Under the pieces are notes generated by a model. The model did not search any database, was not told the DNA's origin, and was given only the letters and a program-made list of their open reading frames with translations. The position numbers were made by a program, and so were the translations under genes. This document shows positions 2,471 to 50,278 of a stretch of 63,178 nucleotides of DNA, in pieces; the stretch's first letter is position 1; every line of letters begins with the position of its first letter. The stretch is from Candidatus Moraniibacteriota bacterium (GTDB lineage: Bacteria > Patescibacteriota > Minisyncoccia > Moranbacterales > UBA1568). The stretch lies in assembly GCA_023261645.1 (NCBI GenBank), contig JAHFOO010000002.1:1-63178 (forward strand), written 5' to 3'.

Positions 2471-2633
2471 TTTTATTACCGAATGAAGTGAGCGAAACGA
2501 AGGTTTATCGTGTCGAAGGCAGACAAACTTTCGTTTCCAAATACCTGCTCGCCTCCGGATGGAGTGCCGGTAAAATCAGGTAAATACACCTGCTATATAC
2601 GATTTTTGCTTTATAATAGGGTATTTTTTCCTC

Positions 2634-2662
2634 TTGACAATATGATAAGAAAAGTGTATACT
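2634..2662 (+). promoter_or_regulatory. sigma70-type promoter
   Basis: TTGACA-17 nt-TATACT. Confidence 0.75.
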
Positions 2663-2787
2663 GGATTGTCCAGTGAATATCTTGCAAAAGGTGTCTGCCG
2701 GACGGTTTCGGATGTACCATAACATTCCAATCTCGGTTGGGCTGTAGACGTACGTCTCGTAACCCAACCAAAAACCAGGAGTTAGAA

Positions 2788-3438
2788 ATGAAAAAGTTGT
2801 TTAAAATCACTGTACTCGTTGCTGCAACGGCACTCATCTCGAGTGCTTTCGCTGCCGACTACAAGGTCAATGGCGCGGTTGTCGCAAAATCGGGCGGTGC
2901 CACGACCCTCTCGGTCGGCGCGGTGACTGCCGACAAGGTGGCTGTTAGTATCAACAACATCGCGGCGGTCTGGAAAGAAGATCCCGGCGCGACCTACGGC
3001 GCCACTTCACTGCAAAGTGAAGATGGTAAAAAGGGCGTGAAGGACTGGGTTCTCACGTATACCGCTAATCCGGAAGTGTTCGCAGGTGCCAAGCAGTGCA
3101 TCTTGAAACGTGGTGCTGACTGGCCAGGGACAGCTAACTTGAAGTCGTTGAAACTTGACGATGCCAAGGTGGTCTGCTCTCCAATCACGGGCGCCGATAG
3201 CACTTACAGTGTCGACATCACCGGGGACTTCAATGTTCTCGGTCTCGTACCGGTCATCGAGTTCAAGGACGGCAGTCGGGCGTGGGGCTCGCATCCGTTT
3301 GGCCAATCGCGTGGTAAAAACATGCGTGGTCAGACCATCACACTTCTCGAGGTCAATCGTGACAAATCGGGCAATGCGGTGAAAGTGGGCCCGGCCAGCA
3401 ATCAGGCCAAGGTCTTCTTTCATGGGCGATTTCAATAA
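2788..3438 (+). CDS. secreted hypothetical protein (216 aa)
   Basis: ATG at 2788 follows AGGAG; signal peptide ending SSAFA; GC-richer codon usage than the core genes. Confidence 0.8.
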   Translation: MKKLFKITVLVAATALISSAFAADYKVNGAVVAKSGGATTLSVGAVTADKVAVSINNIAAVWKEDPGATYGATSLQSEDGKKGVKDWVLTYTANPEVFAGAKQCILKRGADWPGTANLKSLKLDDAKVVCSPITGADSTYSVDITGDFNVLGLVPVIEFKDGSRAWGSHPFGQSRGKNMRGQTITLLEVNRDKSGNAVKVGPASNQAKVFFHGRFQ

Positions 3439-3452
3439 GACCTCCCAAAAAA

Positions 3453-3535
3453 ACCGCGTAAACGGACGCGGTCTCTCAAAAAAGGGTTTCAAAACAATGC
3501 ATAACCGCAACGTTTTGAAACCCTTCTTTTTTTAT
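3453..3535. terminator. tandem hairpins, bidirectional terminator between convergent genes
   Basis: ACCGCGT/ACGCGGT (3453-3472) and a perfect 14-bp stem AAGGGTTTCAAAAC/GTTTTGAAACCCTT (3482-3525), with A- and T-runs flanking. Confidence 0.7.
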
Positions 3536-3551
3536 CCGAACAAGAATGCTT

Positions 3552-4925
3552 CTAGGCATTCTTTTTGTTTTGTGAAGAGAGAGACAGAAGTGCACCGAAA
3601 GCGATGAAGAACAGCCACTGCACAGGAGTGTTTTTGAATATATTGTCCGTGAGGGAAGAGAGTTCAAGAGCGAGGAAGAAAAGAAACAAGACACCAAAAG
3701 CTATCTGAAGGGCACTGTCTTTTCGACTGGAAAAATATTTTTTGAGAATAAGGAATGCAAGAGAGAAAAGATAGAGGAGAAATACTCCGAGACCGACAAG
3801 ACCACCTTCGACAAAAAACTTCACGAAATCGTTGTGCGGGTCATTGGGGCCATTTTTGGTGCCACGGACACTTTCGGATACTTCAGGAAAAGTGTCCATA
3901 CCGGAACCGAGAAGGAGTCCACCATTCTGGAGAGAACGGGTGGTGACATCACTCCACAGCGTTTGTCTCCAGAGGATGGAGCTATCAGGATTGGGATGGA
4001 AACTTTCTACAACACGTGACTGGAAACTCCCCGAGAAAACAAAGAGTATGATCGGAAAAAGAAGAAGTGGGAAAAGGAATATCCGATAACGAAAGAGGGT
4101 GACCAGAAACAGAAAAAAGAACAGCGCCACCCAGGCCACCCGAGCAAAGGTGATGAAGAGCATCAGCGAAAATATACCAAGAACACCGAGCATTATCATA
4201 CGGCTGATGCCTTTTTCTGCAAAAAGGAGGAGGTAGAGTAAGCCGAAAACAACCAGAGCAAAAAGATACATACTGTAGACATTGGGATGGCTGAAGGTGC
4301 CGAAGATGCGAAGGATGGAGACGTTTTCATCCTGAAGTCCGATATGGAAAACAAATTGATAAAGACCAAAAAGAAGAGGAAGGATACTTGAAACGAAAAA
4401 TGCTTGCAAAAGATGTTTGAAATCAATCGTTTCTTTGATGGTGGCGTAAGCGAGAAAACTCAGAGCGAAAAGATCGAAGATGCGAAGAAGTTCTTGGAGT
4501 GTGGAGCGAGGAGCGATGGAATAGAGAATCGTCAGTCCACCCCATATGAAGAGAAGAAAGAATGGGAGCCTGAGGGGAAATTTCATCAGTTCTGCCCGTC
4601 TGAGAAAAAGGAAAACAAAACCGAGGAGAGCGATGCCGATGCCGAGCAGTTGAGAAAGAGAAATGACTGTTTCATAGAGAGTAATACTGAAATATTGTGA
4701 TGAATAGTCGAGTGACATACGTATCACGATAAGCACGAAGAGAAGAAGTTTCGGTTCTCGAAAGAGAAGAATGAAAGCGGTAATAAAGCCAAAAATGAGT
4801 GATGGTAAGAAAAACGAAAGAACAGGAAAAAGAAGAGACAGCACTCCGCTCAGAAAGAGAAGAGTGATAAAAGCAAGAATGAAGGATGGTTTTTCGAGAA
4901 AACTTTTTGTGGCGATGGAGCTCAT
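3552..4925 (-). CDS. O-antigen ligase/polymerase (Wzy/WaaL-like) membrane protein
   Basis: About 12 TM segments; motifs RIFGTFSHPN, TFARVAW, SILWRQTLW, DPHNDFVKFFVEGG. Confidence 0.85.
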   Translation of the reverse strand: MSSIATKSFLEKPSFILAFITLLFLSGVLSLLFPVLSFFLPSLIFGFITAFILLFREPKLLLFVLIVIRMSLDYSSQYFSITLYETVISLSQLLGIGIALLGFVFLFLRRAELMKFPLRLPFFLLFIWGGLTILYSIAPRSTLQELLRIFDLFALSFLAYATIKETIDFKHLLQAFFVSSILPLLFGLYQFVFHIGLQDENVSILRIFGTFSHPNVYSMYLFALVVFGLLYLLLFAEKGISRMIMLGVLGIFSLMLFITFARVAWVALFFFLFLVTLFRYRIFLFPLLLFPIILFVFSGSFQSRVVESFHPNPDSSILWRQTLWSDVTTRSLQNGGLLLGSGMDTFPEVSESVRGTKNGPNDPHNDFVKFFVEGGLVGLGVFLLYLFSLAFLILKKYFSSRKDSALQIAFGVLFLFFLALELSSLTDNIFKNTPVQWLFFIAFGALLSLSSQNKKNA

Positions 4926-7437: not shown

Positions 7438-9555
7438 TTATGGAAGAGTATTTTTTTCGAGACGGATGCGAGCATCGAGCACGCGGAAATCCGTTCTTTT
7501 TGAAAAGACGAGAAGCGGGTTGATATCGAGTTCGGCTACTTCGGGGAAGTCAATCGCGAACTGTGCGAGATGCATCAAAAGTTCTTTCAGATACAAAATA
7601 TCGATACCGGCTTCACCACGTACTCCTGAGAGGATTGCAAAGCTTTTTATTTCACGCACCATTTCATCAATATCCGATTCGGAGAGGGGGATGAAGCGCA
7701 TCGTAACGTCTTTCAGTGTCTCGACATAAATACCGCCCAATCCGAAAACGAGGAGTGTTCCGAGTCCCGGTTCTTTCTTGAGTCCGAGAAGGAGTTCCTT
7801 CCCGCCTTTTTTTGCCATTTCGACCACGAGTGCGCCATCGATTTTTGCATCGGGTGCATTTTTCTTTACATTGGTGAGGAGTCGATCGTAGGCTACCTCC
7901 ATATCTTTCGGATCGATGTCGAGAATGACTCCGCCCGCATCGGATTTGTGGATGATGTCGGGTGAAATAATTTTGAGTGCGACGTTTTTCTCTATTTTCT
8001 GAGCAGCTTCTTTCGCCTCTTTTTTATTTCGCACTTCATAGGTGGCGAAAAATGGGAATCCGTATGCTTTGAGTATGTCGCTTGCCTCTTTTTCGGTCGG
8101 TGTTGTACGATTTTCACTCTTCACTTTTTCGATGATAATTCTGGCTTTTTCTTTGTCAATATTTTGCAGTATGATAGGCGGAACAGCAATTTGTTTGCGC
8201 CAATCGGCGACACGTGCCAGTGCTCCGAGTGCCTGCATACCGGGTTCCGGGTAGATGAGAGTCGCTACGCCATTTCGTCGTAAGAGAGCATTTCCTCCCT
8301 CCAATGATTCTTTGCCGGCGAAAACAGCGATAATTGGTTTATTATAATGTTTTTTGATCGTGATGATGGCTTCAGCAGTTTTCACATCTTCTGTCATCGT
8401 CTGTGGAGTCACAATGACGAGCAACATATCTGTTTCTTCGTCAGCCACCACTATTTCGAGAGCGTTCTGGTAGCGAATTGCCAGAGCATCTCCTAATACA
8501 TCGACAGGATTGTTCACGCTGGCAGAAGGAGGGAGTACCGCCCGTAATTTCTTTTTTGTTTCTTCTCCGAATGATGCGATGCGAAGACCATTTTGTACGG
8601 CGGCATCAGTCGCGAGTACTCCCAACCCACCGGCGTTGGTAATGATACTCACCCGATTGTTTTCCGGTAGGGCATTATTGGAAAAAATAGAGAGGAGATT
8701 GAGTAAGTTTTCGAGACTCTCGGCACGGATGATACGAGCTTGTTTGAAGAGCGCTTCATAGGCGTCATCGCTTCCGGCGAGTGCCCCGGTGTGCGAGCTC
8801 GATGCCTGCGTACCGGCTGTAGTCGTGCCTGATTTGAGAGCGATGATCGGTTTCGGTTCTGATCCGGCAAGTACTGCACGACCTGCTTCGATAATTTTTT
8901 TGCTCTCAATCAATCCTTCGGTATAGAAACTGATAACAGAGGTATTCGTATCGGATGCGAAGAAACGAAGGAGCTCGTTCTCGTCTATGATCGCCTTGTT
9001 TCCGATGCTGATGAAGTGAGAAAAACCAAGTGAGTCGTGAGTGAGGTCGAGGAGCGCCGTACAGAGTGCCCCGCTTTGAGAGAAGAAAGCGATTTTCCCA
9101 TTCTCTGGAAGAATCTTGGCGAAAGAAGCATTGAGACCGAGCGATGGACGGAGGAATCCGAGACAATTCGGACCGAGAAGCGCTATATCATATTTTTTGG
9201 ATATTTGTGTTATCTCATCTTCCAATTTTTTTCCTTCAACTCCGGTTTCTTTGAACCCGGAAGAAATGACGATGGTAGCATGGACGCCTTTCTCTCCGAC
9301 TTCGCGTAAGACAAGAGGGACGATGCTGGCCGGAACGATGATGATGGCGAGATCTATCTCATGAGGGATGAGAGAAATGTTTGTATAACAAGGGAGACCA
9401 AAGAGATTGTCGGCTTTGGGATTGATGGGATAGATACTCCCGGTATAGCTATTTTTGAGGAGGTTTTCGGTGAGAGTATATCCGACACTGCCAATTTTTG
9501 TGGATGCACCGATGACGGCGATAGATCGTGGCGAAAAAAGTGTTTCGAGTTGCAT
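7438..9555 (-). CDS. acd: acetate--CoA ligase (ADP-forming), fused alpha-beta
   Basis: CoA-binding N-terminus (PRSIAVIGAS, GPNCLG), SQSGAL, SSHTGALAG phospho-His motif, ATP-grasp C-terminus (HKSDAGGV, ELDINP); start set at MQLETLF. Confidence 0.9.
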   Translation of the reverse strand: MQLETLFSPRSIAVIGASTKIGSVGYTLTENLLKNSYTGSIYPINPKADNLFGLPCYTNISLIPHEIDLAIIIVPASIVPLVLREVGEKGVHATIVISSGFKETGVEGKKLEDEITQISKKYDIALLGPNCLGFLRPSLGLNASFAKILPENGKIAFFSQSGALCTALLDLTHDSLGFSHFISIGNKAIIDENELLRFFASDTNTSVISFYTEGLIESKKIIEAGRAVLAGSEPKPIIALKSGTTTAGTQASSSHTGALAGSDDAYEALFKQARIIRAESLENLLNLLSIFSNNALPENNRVSIITNAGGLGVLATDAAVQNGLRIASFGEETKKKLRAVLPPSASVNNPVDVLGDALAIRYQNALEIVVADEETDMLLVIVTPQTMTEDVKTAEAIITIKKHYNKPIIAVFAGKESLEGGNALLRRNGVATLIYPEPGMQALGALARVADWRKQIAVPPIILQNIDKEKARIIIEKVKSENRTTPTEKEASDILKAYGFPFFATYEVRNKKEAKEAAQKIEKNVALKIISPDIIHKSDAGGVILDIDPKDMEVAYDRLLTNVKKNAPDAKIDGALVVEMAKKGGKELLLGLKKEPGLGTLLVFGLGGIYVETLKDVTMRFIPLSESDIDEMVREIKSFAILSGVRGEAGIDILYLKELLMHLAQFAIDFPEVAELDINPLLVFSKRTDFRVLDARIRLEKNTLP

Positions 9556-26612: not shown

Positions 26613-28268
26613 ATGGCAAAAACAAAGAATAAACATATAAAATATATCTTCGTCGTCGGTGGTGTGATGAGCGGAGTTGGGAAAGGGATCACTACTTCTT
26701 CGATTGGCAAGATCTTACAATCGCGCGGGCTTCACGTCACGGCGTTCAAGATAGATCCGTATATCAATGTCGATGCAGGCACGATGAATCCGACTGAACA
26801 CGGAGAGGTATTCGTGCTCAAGGATGGATATGAAACGGATCAAGATATGGGGAATTATGAGCGTTTCCTCAATATCGAGCTTTCTCGGGATAACTATATG
26901 ACCACGGGAATGGTGTATAAATCTGTCATCGAGCGTGAACGCAATCTCGAATATGCAGGAAAATGTGTCCAGGTGGTGCCACATATTCCACTCGAAGTGA
27001 TAGCACGTATCAAAAAAACAACGAAGAAAGACGGTGCCGATGTGGCCATCATCGAAGTCGGTGGAACGGTCGGCGAGTATGAGAACATCCTTTTTCTTGA
27101 AGCCATTCGGATGATGAAAATTGAAAGCCCTGAAGATGTCATCACGGTGATGGTGAGTTATATCCCCACGCCATCGACCATCGGTGAGATGAAGACCAAA
27201 CCGACACAACACGCTGTCCGCACTTTGAATGGGACAGGAGTCCAGCCGGATATCATCGTGGCTCGTGCCAGCCGTCCGCTTGATGAGAAGCGCAAAGAGA
27301 AGATTGCTGTCTTTTGCAGTGTCCGTAAAGAGGATGTGATCAGTGCGCCGGATGTGGAGAGTATCTATGATGTCCCTTTGAATTTCGAGAAAGACCATCT
27401 GAGTGCCATTCTGTTTCATAAACTTGGATTGAAAATGAGAAGAGAGAACGGTACCTTGAAAGAATGGGAGAAAATCGTGAAGCGTATTCATTCCGCCGAG
27501 GGTGGAGTCCATATCGGTATCGTAGGAAAATATTTCAAAACCGGTGATTATGTTTTGAGTGATGCATACATAAGTGTGATCGAGGCGCTCAAGCACGCAG
27601 CCTGCAAGGTAGGGAGAAAAGCGATTCTCACATGGATCGACAGCACTGATTTCGAGGAAGATCCGAAGAAACTTGCGGAACTGGAACAGTATGATGGAAT
27701 CATTATTCCCGGCGGTTTTGGGAAACGAGGTATCGAAGGCAAGCTTGCTGTCATTCGCTACTGTCGTCTGAAGAAATTGCCATACTTCGGTTTGTGTTAC
27801 GGAATGCAACTTTTGGTCGTGGAATACGCGCGGGATGTTTTGAAGTTGAAAGATGCTCACAGTACGGAAGTCAATCCTGCTACCGTATACCCCGTGGTGG
27901 ATATTATGCCGGAACAGAAGGAAAATATGCGGAAGAAAAATTACGGTGCAACGATGCGTCTGGGGCATTATGAAGCGAAGATCATAGCAAAAACTCTCGC
28001 ACGAGAGGCATATGGGAAAGAGAGTGTTCTGGAACGTCATCGGCATCGCTATGAGGTGAATCCGGAGTATGTTGATGATTTGAAGAAAGGCGGACTCATT
28101 TTTTCCGCGACTTCGCCCGATGGAGTACTGATGGAAATCGCCGAACTGCCGAAAAAGAGACATCCATTTTTCCTCGCTACGCAATTTCATCCGGAATTTC
28201 AATCATCTCTGCTTCATCCTCATCCTTTGTTCGTCGCTTTCCTCAAGGCCTGTATGAAAAAACAATAA
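26613..28268 (+). CDS. pyrG: CTP synthase
   Basis: GGVMSGVGKG, KIDPYINVDAGTMNPTEHGEV, GLCYGMQ, RHRHRYEVN, TQFHPEF. Confidence 0.98.
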   Translation: MAKTKNKHIKYIFVVGGVMSGVGKGITTSSIGKILQSRGLHVTAFKIDPYINVDAGTMNPTEHGEVFVLKDGYETDQDMGNYERFLNIELSRDNYMTTGMVYKSVIERERNLEYAGKCVQVVPHIPLEVIARIKKTTKKDGADVAIIEVGGTVGEYENILFLEAIRMMKIESPEDVITVMVSYIPTPSTIGEMKTKPTQHAVRTLNGTGVQPDIIVARASRPLDEKRKEKIAVFCSVRKEDVISAPDVESIYDVPLNFEKDHLSAILFHKLGLKMRRENGTLKEWEKIVKRIHSAEGGVHIGIVGKYFKTGDYVLSDAYISVIEALKHAACKVGRKAILTWIDSTDFEEDPKKLAELEQYDGIIIPGGFGKRGIEGKLAVIRYCRLKKLPYFGLCYGMQLLVVEYARDVLKLKDAHSTEVNPATVYPVVDIMPEQKENMRKKNYGATMRLGHYEAKIIAKTLAREAYGKESVLERHRHRYEVNPEYVDDLKKGGLIFSATSPDGVLMEIAELPKKRHPFFLATQFHPEFQSSLLHPHPLFVAFLKACMKKQ

Positions 28269-28278
28269 GTTTGATTTA

Positions 28279-28307
28279 TTGACAAATGTATACCCTATTG
28301 ATACTGT
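28279..28307 (+). promoter_or_regulatory. sigma70-type promoter
   Basis: TTGACA-17 nt-TACTGT. Confidence 0.65.
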
Positions 28308-28313
28308 GTTTTC

Positions 28314-28512
28314 ACAGATGAGTAACAACAATTGGTTATGGACCTCGGTACGGTTGAGGCAACTGATTGGTCGAATGCTAGGCTGCTGCGTAGAATAGGT
28401 ACGAGGCTTTGAGGGTTTGCTTTTGGGTAGACCGGAACGGAGCCGACAGTGAAATAGTACTCTGTAGCCGAAAGGGGTTCGAGAGGTTTCCTTGCAGGAG
28501 ATTGTCATCTGT
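28314..28512 (+). ncRNA. putative ~200-nt structured non-coding RNA
   Basis: Own promoter and terminator; 5' ACAGATGA pairs with 3' TCATCTGT; internal hairpins; no convincing ORF. Confidence 0.55.
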
Positions 28513-28514
28513 AG

Positions 28515-28558
28515 AAGGAGTTGTTAAAAACCTTGACAACTCCTTTTCTCTTTTTCAT
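28515..28558 (+). terminator. intrinsic terminator
   Basis: AAGGAGTTGT/ACAACTCCTT perfect 10-bp stem plus T-rich tail. Confidence 0.7.
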
Positions 28559-28642
28559 TCTTCTCTTTCGTATGTTACAATTATGTCAAGAAGAGGAGGA
28601 TGTGTTCGTATGCCGTGTTTTTTTGTATTTGATTCGCCAATA

Positions 28643-28876
28643 ATGCTTACGCAAAATAACTTCAAAAAATTTTACGCCATATCACTTGCTTGGCAACTGG
28701 GATTTTTCATCGTATTGCCTATCGTTGGATTTCTTTTTCTGGGTTTCTGGGTAGACAAGGCGTTCGGGACAACTCCATTTTTTATGTTGGTTGGCTTGCT
28801 CATCGGAATCGTAGGGAGCGTATATGAAACGTATCACTTGCTTATTCCGCTGATAAGAAATAAGGATGATGCTTAA
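28643..28876 (+). CDS. AtpZ/AtpI-family small membrane protein
   Basis: LGFFIVLPIVG...GFWVDKAFGTTPFF...GLLIG pattern; first gene of the atp operon. Confidence 0.8.
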   Translation: MLTQNNFKKFYAISLAWQLGFFIVLPIVGFLFLGFWVDKAFGTTPFFMLVGLLIGIVGSVYETYHLLIPLIRNKDDA

Positions 28877-29899: not shown

Positions 29900-30283
29900 A
29901 TGCATTTTCTTGGAAGTCTGGGAATCGATTGGAAACTGCTGATCGCACAGATGGTGAATTTCGGATTGTTGCTCTGGTTGTTGAAGAAGTTTTTCTATCA
30001 ACCGATTATTGAACGCATCGAGATTGACGAGAAGACTATGCTGGAGGCTCAGACGCTGAAAGAGTCTTTGGAAAAAGATCGGAAAGCCTTTGCGGTGTAT
30101 CAACAGACCGAAACAACCAAGGTGAAAGAGAGGGCGAGCGAAATCATCAAGGAGGCGGAAAATATTGCCAAAGAACTGGAAGCACGCACATTGAAAGAAG
30201 CTGAGACGGAACGGCAGGCAGTCGTAGCGCAAATTCGATCTCGTTTAGAAGACATTGATCATGCAGAAACAAACAAAAAATAA
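29900..30283 (+). CDS. atpF: F0 subunit b (short, 127 aa)
   Basis: LGIDWKLLIAQMVNFGLLLWLLKKFFYQPI plus coiled coil. Confidence 0.88.
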   Translation: MHFLGSLGIDWKLLIAQMVNFGLLLWLLKKFFYQPIIERIEIDEKTMLEAQTLKESLEKDRKAFAVYQQTETTKVKERASEIIKEAENIAKELEARTLKEAETERQAVVAQIRSRLEDIDHAETNKK

Positions 30284-31721
30284 CACACAGGAAGCCGGAC
30301 ACATTCTGTCTTTTTTTTCAGGTGTCGCCAAACTTACTGGACTGCCACATGTATTTTTGCATGAAGTGCTTGTAGATGTTTCAGGAAAACGTGTGGCCCT
30401 CGTACTCGGTTTCAGACAGAATTTCGTAGAAGCGCTTTTTTTCGATGAATCTTTCGATCTGGAACAGCTCGTGTTCCGGAGCGGTGAACTTTTTTCCGTA
30501 CCGATTGCGGAACATACTATCGGACGGATTACTGATGGCTTCGGTCTGGCTTCGGATGGACTCGGAGATATGACCGGAGAGATGGTGAAGGTGTTCCGAC
30601 AGGCACCGCCTATTTTCGATCGTGAGCCCGTGACAACACCGCTTTCGACCGGTATCAAAATCATCGACACGAGCTTACCTCTCGGCCGAGGTCAACGCGA
30701 ACTGATAATAGGAGATCGAAAACTCGGAAAAAGCACGCTAGCGATAGACATCGTACTGAATCAGAGGCATGTTCAATCTCCGGTTTACTGCATCTATGTG
30801 CTCTGTGGACAGAAAGAAAGCAAAGTACAGGAAGTCGTCGCTCTTTTTGAAAAACACAATGCTTTTTTGTATACGACAGTTGTCGCTTCGACAGCGGGAG
30901 CCTCGTTTGCTGAACAATACTTGGCACCGTTTGTCGGATGTTCGATCGGAGAATATTTCCGTGATCGAGGCAAAGATGTCCTTATTATTTATGATGATCT
31001 TTCCAGTCATGCAAAAGCATACCGCGATATCGCGCTTCTTCTCGAGCGTGCACCAGGACGGGAGGCATATCCCGGAGATGTTTTCTCTCTGCATGCCGGC
31101 CTTCTCGAACGAGCAGCGAAACTTTCAGAAGCGAAAGGAGGAGGATCGTTGACTGCGTTACCGATTGTCGAGACTCAAGAGGGCGACATCACTTCTTTTA
31201 TACCGACAAACATAATCTCTATTACGGATGGGCAAATCTATCTGGAACGCGATCTTTTCGAGAAAGGATATTTTCCGGCTATCAACATCGGTCTATCAGT
31301 TTCCCGTATCGGTTCTCAGGCGCAACCAAAAGTATTGAGGAGTGTGGTGGGCGGTATCCGGCTAGGACTGTCTCAACACAAAGAACTGATGAAACTGACG
31401 CAACTTGAGACAGTGGTGAGCGATGAAGCAAAAGAAAAGATTCATCATGGTGAACTGATTCTTGAGTTATTGAAACAGCGGAAGCATACGAATGTCTCTT
31501 GGCCGGAACAAGTTATTTTGTTCTATACTATCAAAGCCGGACTTTTCGATGATATCGAGAAGGAGAAATGGAGCAGTTTTGAGACGCTTCTCTTGGAGTT
31601 GATTCGAAGTGTGTATCCGATTGTTCTTGAGGAGATCGAAATGGACGCATTCGATGCTGTTATCAAAAATAAAATCAAGCAGATTACCGAAGACTTCAAA
31701 CAAGAATTTGAACAACACTAG
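30255..31721 (+). CDS. atpA: F1 subunit alpha (divergent, short N-terminus)
   Basis: GRGQRELIIGDRKLGKS, ERAPGREAYPGDVFSLH, PTNIISITDGQIYL, SVSRIG. Confidence 0.95.
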   Translation: MIMQKQTKNNTQEAGHILSFFSGVAKLTGLPHVFLHEVLVDVSGKRVALVLGFRQNFVEALFFDESFDLEQLVFRSGELFSVPIAEHTIGRITDGFGLASDGLGDMTGEMVKVFRQAPPIFDREPVTTPLSTGIKIIDTSLPLGRGQRELIIGDRKLGKSTLAIDIVLNQRHVQSPVYCIYVLCGQKESKVQEVVALFEKHNAFLYTTVVASTAGASFAEQYLAPFVGCSIGEYFRDRGKDVLIIYDDLSSHAKAYRDIALLLERAPGREAYPGDVFSLHAGLLERAAKLSEAKGGGSLTALPIVETQEGDITSFIPTNIISITDGQIYLERDLFEKGYFPAINIGLSVSRIGSQAQPKVLRSVVGGIRLGLSQHKELMKLTQLETVVSDEAKEKIHHGELILELLKQRKHTNVSWPEQVILFYTIKAGLFDDIEKEKWSSFETLLLELIRSVYPIVLEEIEMDAFDAVIKNKIKQITEDFKQEFEQH

Positions 31722-49513: not shown

Positions 49514-50104
49514 TTAGGCACAGAGTCGAGAGAGGAGGCCGAGGGCTTGTTGATAGCCCTTGATTCCAATCCAGACTGGTAAGAAAAATTCTTTGTTACC
49601 AGTCAGGCTCATCTTCTCCAATGCTCTTCCTGGAAGGGTTTCATAGCAATCGAATCCGCTATGTTTGTATCTCTCCAAAAGGCGTTTACGAATGGTTACA
49701 TAAAAACCTGGTACACCTCGTTCACTCAGATACCCGAGGAGGTGTCCGAGGAATTGAAGCGAATAAGGCGTTGCTTCGGGCGTGCTTGTCATCCGAGAAA
49801 TTTCCACGGAACCGAGTGGCACCGTTTGAGGGTTTTCCAGGAACGTTGCAACCGGGAGAGGAAATACTGATGTGCTCCAGATGAGACGACATCCAGCACT
49901 GACTCTCCCGTCGTGACGAGCAAGCAGAATGTAGTCGCAACGACTGAAGCGGTCATAGCCATCCTGCTCCATTCCATCGGCAGAAATCGGTTCCCAACCG
50001 TATTTGACAGCGAATTGCTCATGCCGACGCCTGAAATGATCTTCTACAAGTCTCATTTGTTCTGTGTTTTTGTGACCAGCCGGGACGAGAAGAGGACTAT
50101 ACAT
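49514..50104 (-). CDS. LuxI-family acyl-homoserine-lactone synthase-like N-acyltransferase
   Basis: FRRRHEQF...YGWE, GMEQDGYD, AGCRL, VEISRM match the invariant LuxI residues. Confidence 0.78.
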   Translation of the reverse strand: MYSPLLVPAGHKNTEQMRLVEDHFRRRHEQFAVKYGWEPISADGMEQDGYDRFSRCDYILLARHDGRVSAGCRLIWSTSVFPLPVATFLENPQTVPLGSVEISRMTSTPEATPYSLQFLGHLLGYLSERGVPGFYVTIRKRLLERYKHSGFDCYETLPGRALEKMSLTGNKEFFLPVWIGIKGYQQALGLLSRLCA

Positions 50105-50278
50105 CCTTTCATTCGAGCCTTCGATGAAACTTTCTTCTGATGAACAGATTTTTTCCATTTTTTACTCCAATGCGAGCCGTATTCCTTCCCCGGGTAAGGG
50201 GATACGAAATAGAAGAGCCCACCGGGAGCAAAAATAAAAAAGAAACAATGGTAACTATTGTTAATGATCTAACGGAAC

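Follow-up and report, generated by a model that had tools for sequence, protein, structure and literature searches.

On contig JAHFOO010000002.1 of a Candidatus Moraniibacteriota bacterium (assembly GCA_023261645.1), the pyrG gene and the ATP synthase operon (atpZ-atpBEFAGDC) are spaced by a small RNA element, which occupies positions 28314-28512 of the plus strand and is followed by a terminator. All positions refer to the stretch of 63,178 nucleotides that was analyzed, called the window below. The host is a Patescibacterium whose best pyrG matches, at 57-72% identity, come from Moraniibacteriota, Paceibacterota and Parcubacteria genomes. The predicted RNA (the window RNA) contains one long arm, and it is this arm that relates the element to the L1 stalk of 23S ribosomal RNA (rRNA).

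The lead came from a landfill-metagenome contig that aligned to 28386-28427 and then ran on as GGGAAAAGTGAAATACCACCC, a familiar string of 23S rRNA. In a blastn comparison with E. coli rrlB, 28384-28412 matched 23S positions 2106-2134 (24/29) and 28439-28456 matched 2156-2173 (16/18), in the same order. A hidden Markov model (HMM) of 16 large subunit (LSU) rRNA segments retrieved 28385-28465 (nhmmer, E 2.4e-12) as the sole match in the window. Covariance model R1, which was built from ten real 23S genes only and given the textbook structure of helices H76, H77 and H78, matched 28381-28469 with 56.1 bits (E 7.2e-12) and zero non-canonical pairs, 26/26 aligned pairs being canonical in the window RNA. 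Since the nine metagenomic comparison rRNAs had been retrieved with a pattern derived from the window RNA, the HMM and covariance-model scores are somewhat inflated; the comparison with E. coli does not depend on that retrieval. Pairs were also counted in an alignment of the window RNA, E. coli and the nine metagenomic 23S genes. As can be seen there, 18 canonical pairs are 96% formed across the alignment and all 18 are formed in the window RNA; the register is specific, for with partners shifted by 1 to 3 columns in either direction only 44-59% are formed.

At the level of sequence, the window RNA is ~76% identical to the 23S genes on contigs L101, L098 and L093. The base of H78 (GGCUUU, 28405-28410, with GGAGCC, 28439-28444) is unchanged relative to the rRNAs, and so are the blocks GUAGnAUAGG, GAGGCUUUGA, GUAGAAUAGG, GGAGCCGAC..UGAAAUA and GCCGAC..UGAAAUA. 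Both T-loops, A and B, keep all invariant columns of alignment A1 and follow the consensus except at variable positions, and the loop equivalents of G2112 and A2169 (28391 and 28452, respectively) are identical to those of the rRNAs. In the ribosome, the G2112-A2169 pair is the surface on which the elbow of the E-site tRNA stacks. H77 reads GGUAC/GUACU in the window RNA as against GGYGG/CCRCC in the rRNAs, and two of its pairs have undergone double compensatory changes (G-C to A-U and G-C to C-G) that occur in none of the rRNAs in the set; in addition, H78 carries a 5-nt insertion. Judging from these alignments and pair counts, the long arm is a separately encoded paralogue of the 23S L1-stalk head, comprising the top of H76, H77, H78 and both T-loops. 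Because this core is homologous to the L1 stalk, the RNA is not a wholly unrelated new fold. No second rRNA-like fragment was found in the 63-kb window.

The fold was examined next to the homology. The 5′ end ACAGATGA (28314-28321) is fully complementary to TCATCTGT (28505-28512), and this stem, P1, closes the minimum-free-energy (MFE) fold. Imposing the canonical stalk helices gave -62.8 kcal/mol, compared with -66.7 kcal/mol for the unconstrained minimum (a cost of 3.9), and the MFE pairs within the stalk head (28390-92/28458-60 and 28400-02/28449-51) were discarded in favor of canonical H77. The constrained fold is a four-way junction of P1, a 5′ hairpin P1a, the long stalk arm and a 3′ hairpin P3. 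Similarity to rRNA ends at about 28384 and about 28466, and by this comparison the flanks (the 8-bp closing stem, the extra 5′ hairpin and the H79-like hairpin) are not rRNA-like. Collinearity of the whole RNA with 23S 2040-2250, as produced by a forced MAFFT alignment, was rejected, being unsupported by nhmmer or blastn. The layout nevertheless recalls the H75/H76/H79 junction, in that P3 stands directly after the arm, as H79 does after H76 in the ribosome, but the lower stem of the arm (28371-28379/28474-28482) is H76-like by position only and the invariant junction nucleotides of rRNA (e.g., UCUAAC after H76) are not retained. On this evidence conservation covers the ligand-binding head but not the foot by which the stalk docks into the 50S subunit. 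Set beside the L1 stalk of 23S rRNA (E. coli ~2093-2196), the window RNA has the same blocks, the top of H76, a 5-bp H77, H78 and two T-loops; it differs in the two H77 pairs, the H78 insertion, the non-conserved lower H76 and H75/H79 junction and the extra 5′ hairpin. It thus has every structural feature of the L1 stalk as a module and lies outside any rRNA gene, flanked by pyrG and atpZ and with its own promoter and terminator. Coordinates of all features are collected in Table 1.

Table 1. Predicted features of the RNA element and helix substitutions of variant A (positions in the window).
Feature	Position	Strand	Basis or remark
Promoter	28279..28307	+	-35 TTGACA 28279-28284, 17-nt spacer, extended -10 TGATACTGT 28299-28307
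P1 5′ strand ACAGAUGA and predicted transcript start	28314..28321	+	Pairs with 28505-28512 in MFE and homology-constrained folds
26-codon open reading frame (ORF) in RNA	28318..28398	+	Judged non-coding: without ribosome-binding site, frame lost in variant A
Single-stranded linker GUAACAA	28322..28328	+	Fold
P1a hairpin, 5′ domain	28329..28369	+	Without 23S rRNA counterpart; no rRNA similarity by nhmmer; most variable part
Long arm, equivalent of whole L1 stalk	28371..28482	+	Fold; nhmmer envelope 28365-28481
L1-stalk head homologue	28381..28469	+	blastn, nhmmer, covariance model R1, pair count
H76 top	28381-86 with 28464-69, plus 28388 with 28462	+	L1-stalk head
T-loop A	28389-28397	+	L1-stalk head
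H77	28398-28402 with 28457-28461	+	L1-stalk head
H78	28405-10 with 28439-44; 28414-21 with 28426-33	+	L1-stalk head
T-loop B	28445-28456	+	L1-stalk head
P3 hairpin	28485..28503	+	H79-like in position only, sequence not rRNA-like; no substitutions listed in variant A
P1 3′ strand UCAUCUGU	28505..28512	+	Fold
Intrinsic terminator	28513..28556	+	15-bp stem, 5-nt loop, then CUCUUUUUC
Variant A, A>G	28321	+	A-U to G-U (P1)
Variant A, U>C	28364	+	G-U to G-C
Variant A, C>U	28433	+	G-C to G-U
Variant A, U>C	28461	+	G-U to G-C, H77
Variant A, G>A	28477	+	U-G to U-A
Variant A, A>G	28513	+	A-U to G-U (terminator)
Variant A, A>G	28515	+	A-U to G-U (terminator)

The original prediction, made from the DNA letters, had likened a stem beginning with GAGCC to the base of group II intron domain V, had considered a divergent 6S RNA or an undescribed class of noncoding RNA (ncRNA), and had seen no sign of tmRNA, RNase P RNA or canonical signal recognition particle (SRP) RNA. 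The Rfam search that it proposed was run with Rfam 15. At the gathering score, the whole window yielded tRNA-Ala only, with no LSU match; at E≤10, the region 28200-28700 gave only noise on the terminator, the LSU model not being reported for a similarity of ~85 nt. The absence of tmRNA, RNase P and SRP RNA is upheld even at this relaxed threshold. The resemblance to domain V dissolved, as GAGCC belongs to the 3′ strand of H78, where GGAGCC pairs with GGCUUU, and no group II match was found. Most of the other stems that had been listed do exist and have a different meaning, while GGACCTC/GAGGTTT is not used in the best fold. An undescribed class agrees with the lack of an Rfam family, but the homology of the core to the 23S L1 stalk had been missed. 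The length of ~200 nt, the paired ends and the dedicated promoter and terminator would suit a divergent 6S RNA or some other housekeeping RNA already known (SRP, tmRNA, RNase P, group II domain V), and, like 6S RNA, the window RNA would mimic a ligand of a core machine. It has, however, neither an Rfam match to any of these at E≤10 nor the rod with a central bubble that marks 6S RNA, its fold being a four-way junction, and what it mimics is rRNA and not open promoter DNA; the stem likened to domain V forms H78 of the L1-stalk copy. We regard this possibility as extremely improbable.

Signals for transcription frame the element on both sides. TTGACA and TACTGT hexamers lie upstream with the spacing that the original prediction had assigned to a σ70 promoter, and TGn at 28299-28301 precedes the latter, making it an extended -10 element. 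Since the -10 hexamer matches merely 3/6 consensus positions, the promoter was not listed by the promoter scan. The arrangement TTGACA-17-TGATACTGT is common to the window and two other strain variants (X8 record 3 and X7 record 2), whereas the first 9-10 bases of the spacer are unrelated among the three (AATGTATAC in the window, GCTCTCTGTT in X8 and ACCGAACAT in X7, the latter two read from loose ends of contigs). Hexamers kept while the spacer diverged amount to a phylogenetic footprint of a promoter, and this footprint together with the promoter geometry places the predicted transcript start near 28314, where it had been expected. At the other end, a terminator (28513-28547) directly follows the closing stem, as had been noted, with a stem of 15 bp instead of the 10 bp first reported, a 5-nt loop and then CTCTTTTTC. 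When folded, the plus strand of 28314-28550 reaches -85.5 kcal/mol (z = -4.28, 0/200 dinucleotide shuffles as stable), whereas the reverse complement of the RNA region is ordinary (z = -0.62). G-U pairs are frequent in the helices, consistent with an RNA made from the plus strand. The locus therefore retains the description originally given, of a stand-alone RNA with paired ends: by its fold, it is a structured, strand-specific RNA with a folded body of ~200 nt and a terminator hairpin, whose transcription is predicted from the flanking signals.

The sequence of the locus recurs in metagenome runs. A 6.9-kb contig (depth 181) of run X1, a wood-decay metagenome, spans pyrG, the RNA and atp genes with zero differences, and the same sequence as in the window is present in runs X2 to X6. 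That contig is the only one in X1 at least 80% alike to the locus, and therefore the element is not a recent copy of a 23S gene. By these matches the locus is real, neither a chimera nor a recent rRNA copy.

Since P3 adjoins the arm as H79 adjoins H76, one may ask whether the RNA is a piece of the ribosome itself, with a host 23S gene that lacks the L1 stalk and the window RNA as the real stalk, joining the 50S subunit as a separate piece. Its closing stem, long arm and adjoining short hairpin mirror the H75/H76/H79 three-way junction, and lineages of the candidate phyla radiation with a truncated or missing H78, or without the L1-stalk protein uL1, have been described (PMC9297842; bioRxiv 10.1101/2024.11.29.625318). 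The host stalk was sought in X1 by contig depth, with metagenomic 23S genes as references, the contigs being short and mixed. On both the H74/H75 and the H79 side there are contigs of depth 181-203, and over the stalk only depths of at most 118 were seen, so that no contig of host-like depth was observed over this region of the reference genes. The missing coverage is weak evidence, because apparent "skips" in the read alignments can hide divergent letters. Against such a split stand the loss of the stalk-docking junction nucleotides, the lack in X1 of a deletion joint of host depth, and X1 contigs from the H75 region that run into a normal stalk start, ...GCGTAGCATAGATG; moreover, since P1 is intramolecular, no strand is free to pair with a 23S remnant. 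It is thus distinctly improbable that the window RNA is a split-off part of the host 23S rRNA. A joint recorded as "skips 77" was rejected as a deletion, as 74 divergent letters lie between. Several groundwater contigs of X2 and X3 match the reference 23S gene of L101 on either side of its L1 stalk (8108-8265) and skip 125-156 nt of it; these skips may represent highly divergent or shortened stalks in other members of the community.

Two diverged forms of the element allowed its helices to be compared. Variant A (runs X7, X9 and X16) aligns over 28350-28555 with ~93% identity, and in variant B (X7 record 2) the aligned parts are 28294-28422 and 28500-28535, with 74 divergent letters between them. 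Pairing is kept at 7/7 of the helix substitutions of variant A listed in Table 1, several of them by way of G-U pairs, which count as pairs on the plus strand only. Because a random transition would leave a pair intact in about half of cases, this result (p ~0.01-0.03, a rough estimate) lends modest support to the fold. Within P1a, U33-G65 has become C-G and G34-U64 has become G-C in variant A, with one break at 28332; the unpaired changes of this variant fall in the H78 tetraloop (28424), the 5-nt H78 insertion (28438) and loop B (28447). Variant A preserves the sequence AACAACA (28324-28330), of which the last 2 nt belong to P1a (loose end ATGGAAAACAACAGCC...). The segment 28318-28349 is 2 nt shorter in variant A (ATGGAAAACAACAGCCGGATCGGACTCATC), and since this shortening lies between 28321 and 28349, the frame of the 26-codon ORF is lost; translation of this ORF, which had been raised as an argument against an ncRNA, is not conserved, and the ORF has no ribosome-binding site. 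Outside the promoter and the terminator the variants stop aligning, variant A continuing as TGTATCAAAAAAACTCTTCTGAATGAAGAG. Scans of viral contigs with two patterns gave 0 matches, and a search for spurious ORFs overlapping homologous RNAs, with a 101-aa minus-strand ORF as the query, gave no candidates.

The variants also bear on whether the element is a non-functional relic, i.e., a 23S fragment left by rearrangement or by an ectopic insertion tied to rRNA insertion elements, drifting or tolerated. Merely ~85 nt are rRNA-like, the phylogenetic spread is very narrow, no transcript was seen in metatranscriptomes (of differing samples), and, according to PMC11270868 and to contigs L101, L093 and L098, mobile insertions are frequent in rRNA genes of the radiation. 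A drifting fragment would not readily explain, however, that an element more than 20% diverged from everything else in the host sample has 26/26 canonical pairs and both T-loops intact, that H77 has acquired two double compensatory changes, that the promoter hexamers are kept in spite of a diverged spacer, that the variant substitutions preserve pairing in seven of seven cases, or that the whole is framed by a neat closing stem and a terminator. A relic is accordingly an unlikely explanation. As to the contigs named, the 23S match in the metagenomic contigs L093 (734-1936) and L098 (316-1911) begins at model position 2046 without being truncated by the end of the contig; 733 and 315 nt of non-rRNA, respectively, stand before it, reflecting either an insertion or intron of large size at that site or a 23S gene in pieces. 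L101 (5665-9282) carries a 3.6-kb 23S gene with extra segments (~7626-7715 and ~7759-7958), skipped by contigs of other organisms and characteristic of rRNA insertion sequences in the radiation; upstream of it lie rplJ-rplL (2513-3569), without rplK or rplA in front.

The position of the element in front of the atp genes raises the question of a cis-acting leader, in which the L1-stalk mimic and its terminator would form a protein- or tRNA-responsive attenuator of atpZ-atpBEFAGDC. The layout fits: a structured RNA is followed by an intrinsic terminator and, after 63 nt, by an operon on the same strand. Leaders of ribosomal-protein operons and T-boxes share this order of structured RNA, terminator and operon. 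T-box Stem I, moreover, uses the same T-loop platform (PMC4810234). Among the pyrG loci of 80 related genomes, atp genes follow pyrG in 0/80 and an RNA homologue was found by nhmmer in 0/80, so that the search of pyrG-atp intergenic regions suggested originally found neither the synteny nor the element. AtpZ homologues numbered 19 (56-64% identical), and the atp operons of three (L081, L084 and L085) were examined; merely ~100-150 nt stand upstream of atpZ there, next to unrelated or divergent neighbors, and the stalk covariance model had no match in the 587 kb of these relatives. In the nascent RNA, no alternative partner was found for the 5′ strand of the terminator, which remains single-stranded up to the point where its own 3′ strand emerges. 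A promoter-like site, TTTTCA-18-TGnTACAAT, lies at 28552-28581 (+), separating the terminator from atpZ, and the sequence that follows variant A is unrelated. A leader of the atp operon is thus unlikely, to nearly the same degree as a relic, and from the synteny, the upstream regions of relatives, the covariance-model null, the unpaired terminator strand and the 28552-28581 site the element is best read as its own gene. Since no terminator lies between pyrG and the RNA, read-through from pyrG into the RNA is possible.

The promoter-like site at 28552-28581 would leave atpZ with a very short leader. Within the ATP synthase operon of the window (29900-31721), the b subunit (127 aa) is directly followed by alpha, the two overlapping at the TTG start of alpha (30255), and no separate delta (OSCP) gene is visible; the relative L084 shares this arrangement, whereas L081 and L085 encode a larger b-like protein (249-271 aa). 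Elsewhere in the window, a 214-aa protein encoded at 49514-50158 (-) gave a weak match to PF00765, the autoinducer (acyl-homoserine lactone) synthase family (E 7.5e-6, 58/183 profile positions); such a protein is unexpected in the radiation and the match may be spurious.

One can ask what a free gene for a stalk head would be for. The parts that are kept are exactly those by which the L1 stalk holds uL1 and the elbow of the E-site tRNA: uL1 binds the same motif, the H77/H78 junction, in rRNA and in regulatory mRNA (PMC2175363), and the tRNA elbow is held by the interdigitated T-loops of the stalk (PMC4810234). In the window RNA, the arm with this head is carried by a non-ribosomal base (the 8-bp closing stem, the extra 5′ hairpin and the short 3′ hairpin). 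Since the ligand-holding head is kept and the parts that anchor it in the 50S subunit are not, the likeliest mode of action is that of a free-floating mimic, a decoy or a platform, off the ribosome. We tentatively prefer, at a little under even probability, an independently transcribed, trans-acting L1-stalk mimic that would bind the partners of the stalk, uL1 and/or the tRNA elbow. Lacking the ribosomal foot, a free head should be a competitor of the ribosome for one partner or for the two together.

That uL1 is the partner, for titration or feedback sensing as at the mRNA site of the L11/L1 operon but in trans, is a possibility to which we give limited credence; the tRNA elbow receives somewhat less, and would become likelier if the host is among the uL1-less Parcubacteria. 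In a host with uL1, parsimony would favor a trans-acting decoy or sensor, and a regulatory site of lower affinity would be in keeping with the altered H77. In a host without uL1, the tRNA elbow would be the remaining known ligand, and a second contact would probably be needed for useful affinity, perhaps through the AACAACA single strand or P1a.

Several observations weigh against the proposed mimic. Homologues are limited to 2-3 close variants (~86-93% identical) in groundwater runs, and a metagenome scan with a pattern of the conserved blocks returned 15 loci, all in genuine 23S genes. The 28447 C>U change of variant A hits an otherwise invariant base of loop B. Five metatranscriptomes from the same studies are known, and in the four that were compared (X11, X12, X13 and X15) no reads fell on the locus, a null that is uninformative because the samples differ. 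An isolated T-loop platform, such as that of T-box Stem I, is expected to bind tRNA weakly. As for uL1, the pair of H77 adjacent to the junction is flipped from G-C to C-G, which could lower uL1 affinity, neither a uL1 (rplA) nor a uL11 gene was found in the 63-kb window, and if the host lacks uL1, this protein is excluded as the ligand. Motifs resembling a Shine-Dalgarno (SD) sequence (GGAG/GAGG/AGGA, 4-20 nt upstream) precede 5/34 genes with starts from 671 to 60003, which suggests that the organism largely does without SD pairing. Sparse use of SD sequences overlaps with the uL1-less Parcubacteria (PMC9297842; bioRxiv 10.1101/2024.11.29.625318), and in the class Paceibacteria H78 is reportedly kept, with uL1 and Der absent (bioRxiv 10.1101/2024.11.29.625318). 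The atpZ gene, at 28610, is among the few genes with an SD motif (GAGGAGG).

Known systems close to the window RNA include the uL1 sites on the L11/L1-operon mRNA of bacteria and on the L1-operon mRNA of Methanococcus, likewise non-ribosomal copies of the H77/H78 junction to which domain I of uL1 binds (PMC2175363). Those mRNA sites are minimal (~36-49 nt), have no T-loops and act in cis at the translation start of their operon, whereas the window RNA keeps the whole stalk head, would form a separate transcription unit and does not lie by rplK or rplA. The T-loop platforms of T-box Stem I and of RNase P RNA are likewise motifs for stacking on the tRNA elbow presented by a non-ribosomal RNA (PMC4810234), and, as in the T-box, the motif of the window RNA stands at the tip of a long arm with a terminator after it. 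In T-boxes and RNase P, however, the motif arose convergently, while that of the window RNA is homologous to the L1 stalk, and the window RNA has no T-box sequence, no identifiable specifier loop, no antiterminator and no aminoacyl-tRNA synthetase gene downstream. A T-box riboswitch was accordingly rejected, given the lack of an Rfam T-box match and of a competing pairing and the ATP synthase operon downstream.

A search of the literature on L1-stalk mimics and fragmented 23S rRNA in Patescibacteria returned nothing comparable, and, as far as could be found, a part of the ribosome kept as a separate small RNA has no earlier description. To our knowledge, the only other RNAs that imitate rRNA are ribosomal-protein mRNAs, which do so through short sites acting in cis. 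If the proposal holds, rRNA mimicry would gain a trans-acting form in this free-standing, promoter-driven copy of the whole stalk head, and the elbow-binding motif would be seen in a fourth context, reached by descent instead of convergence. Conceivably, though with less assurance than for the mimic as such, the element represents a new class of small RNAs, a selectively maintained paralogue of an rRNA domain that would act off the ribosome and capture uL1, or deacylated tRNA by its elbow; it stands a substantial chance of being the founding member of a class of small RNAs derived from rRNA domains. The case also indicates that structured RNAs failing every Rfam model can be recognized by local homology to rRNA domains. 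The ribosomes of the host group are unusual at exactly the L1-stalk site, uL1 being often missing and H78 often shortened; the radiation has undergone repeated loss of uL1 and remodeling of the L1 stalk, and the new class could belong to the "alternative ribosome regulation" that has been suggested for Parcubacteria without uL1 (PMC5220378). In these organisms, the window RNA would offer a testable handle on the release of E-site tRNA or on uL1 homeostasis.

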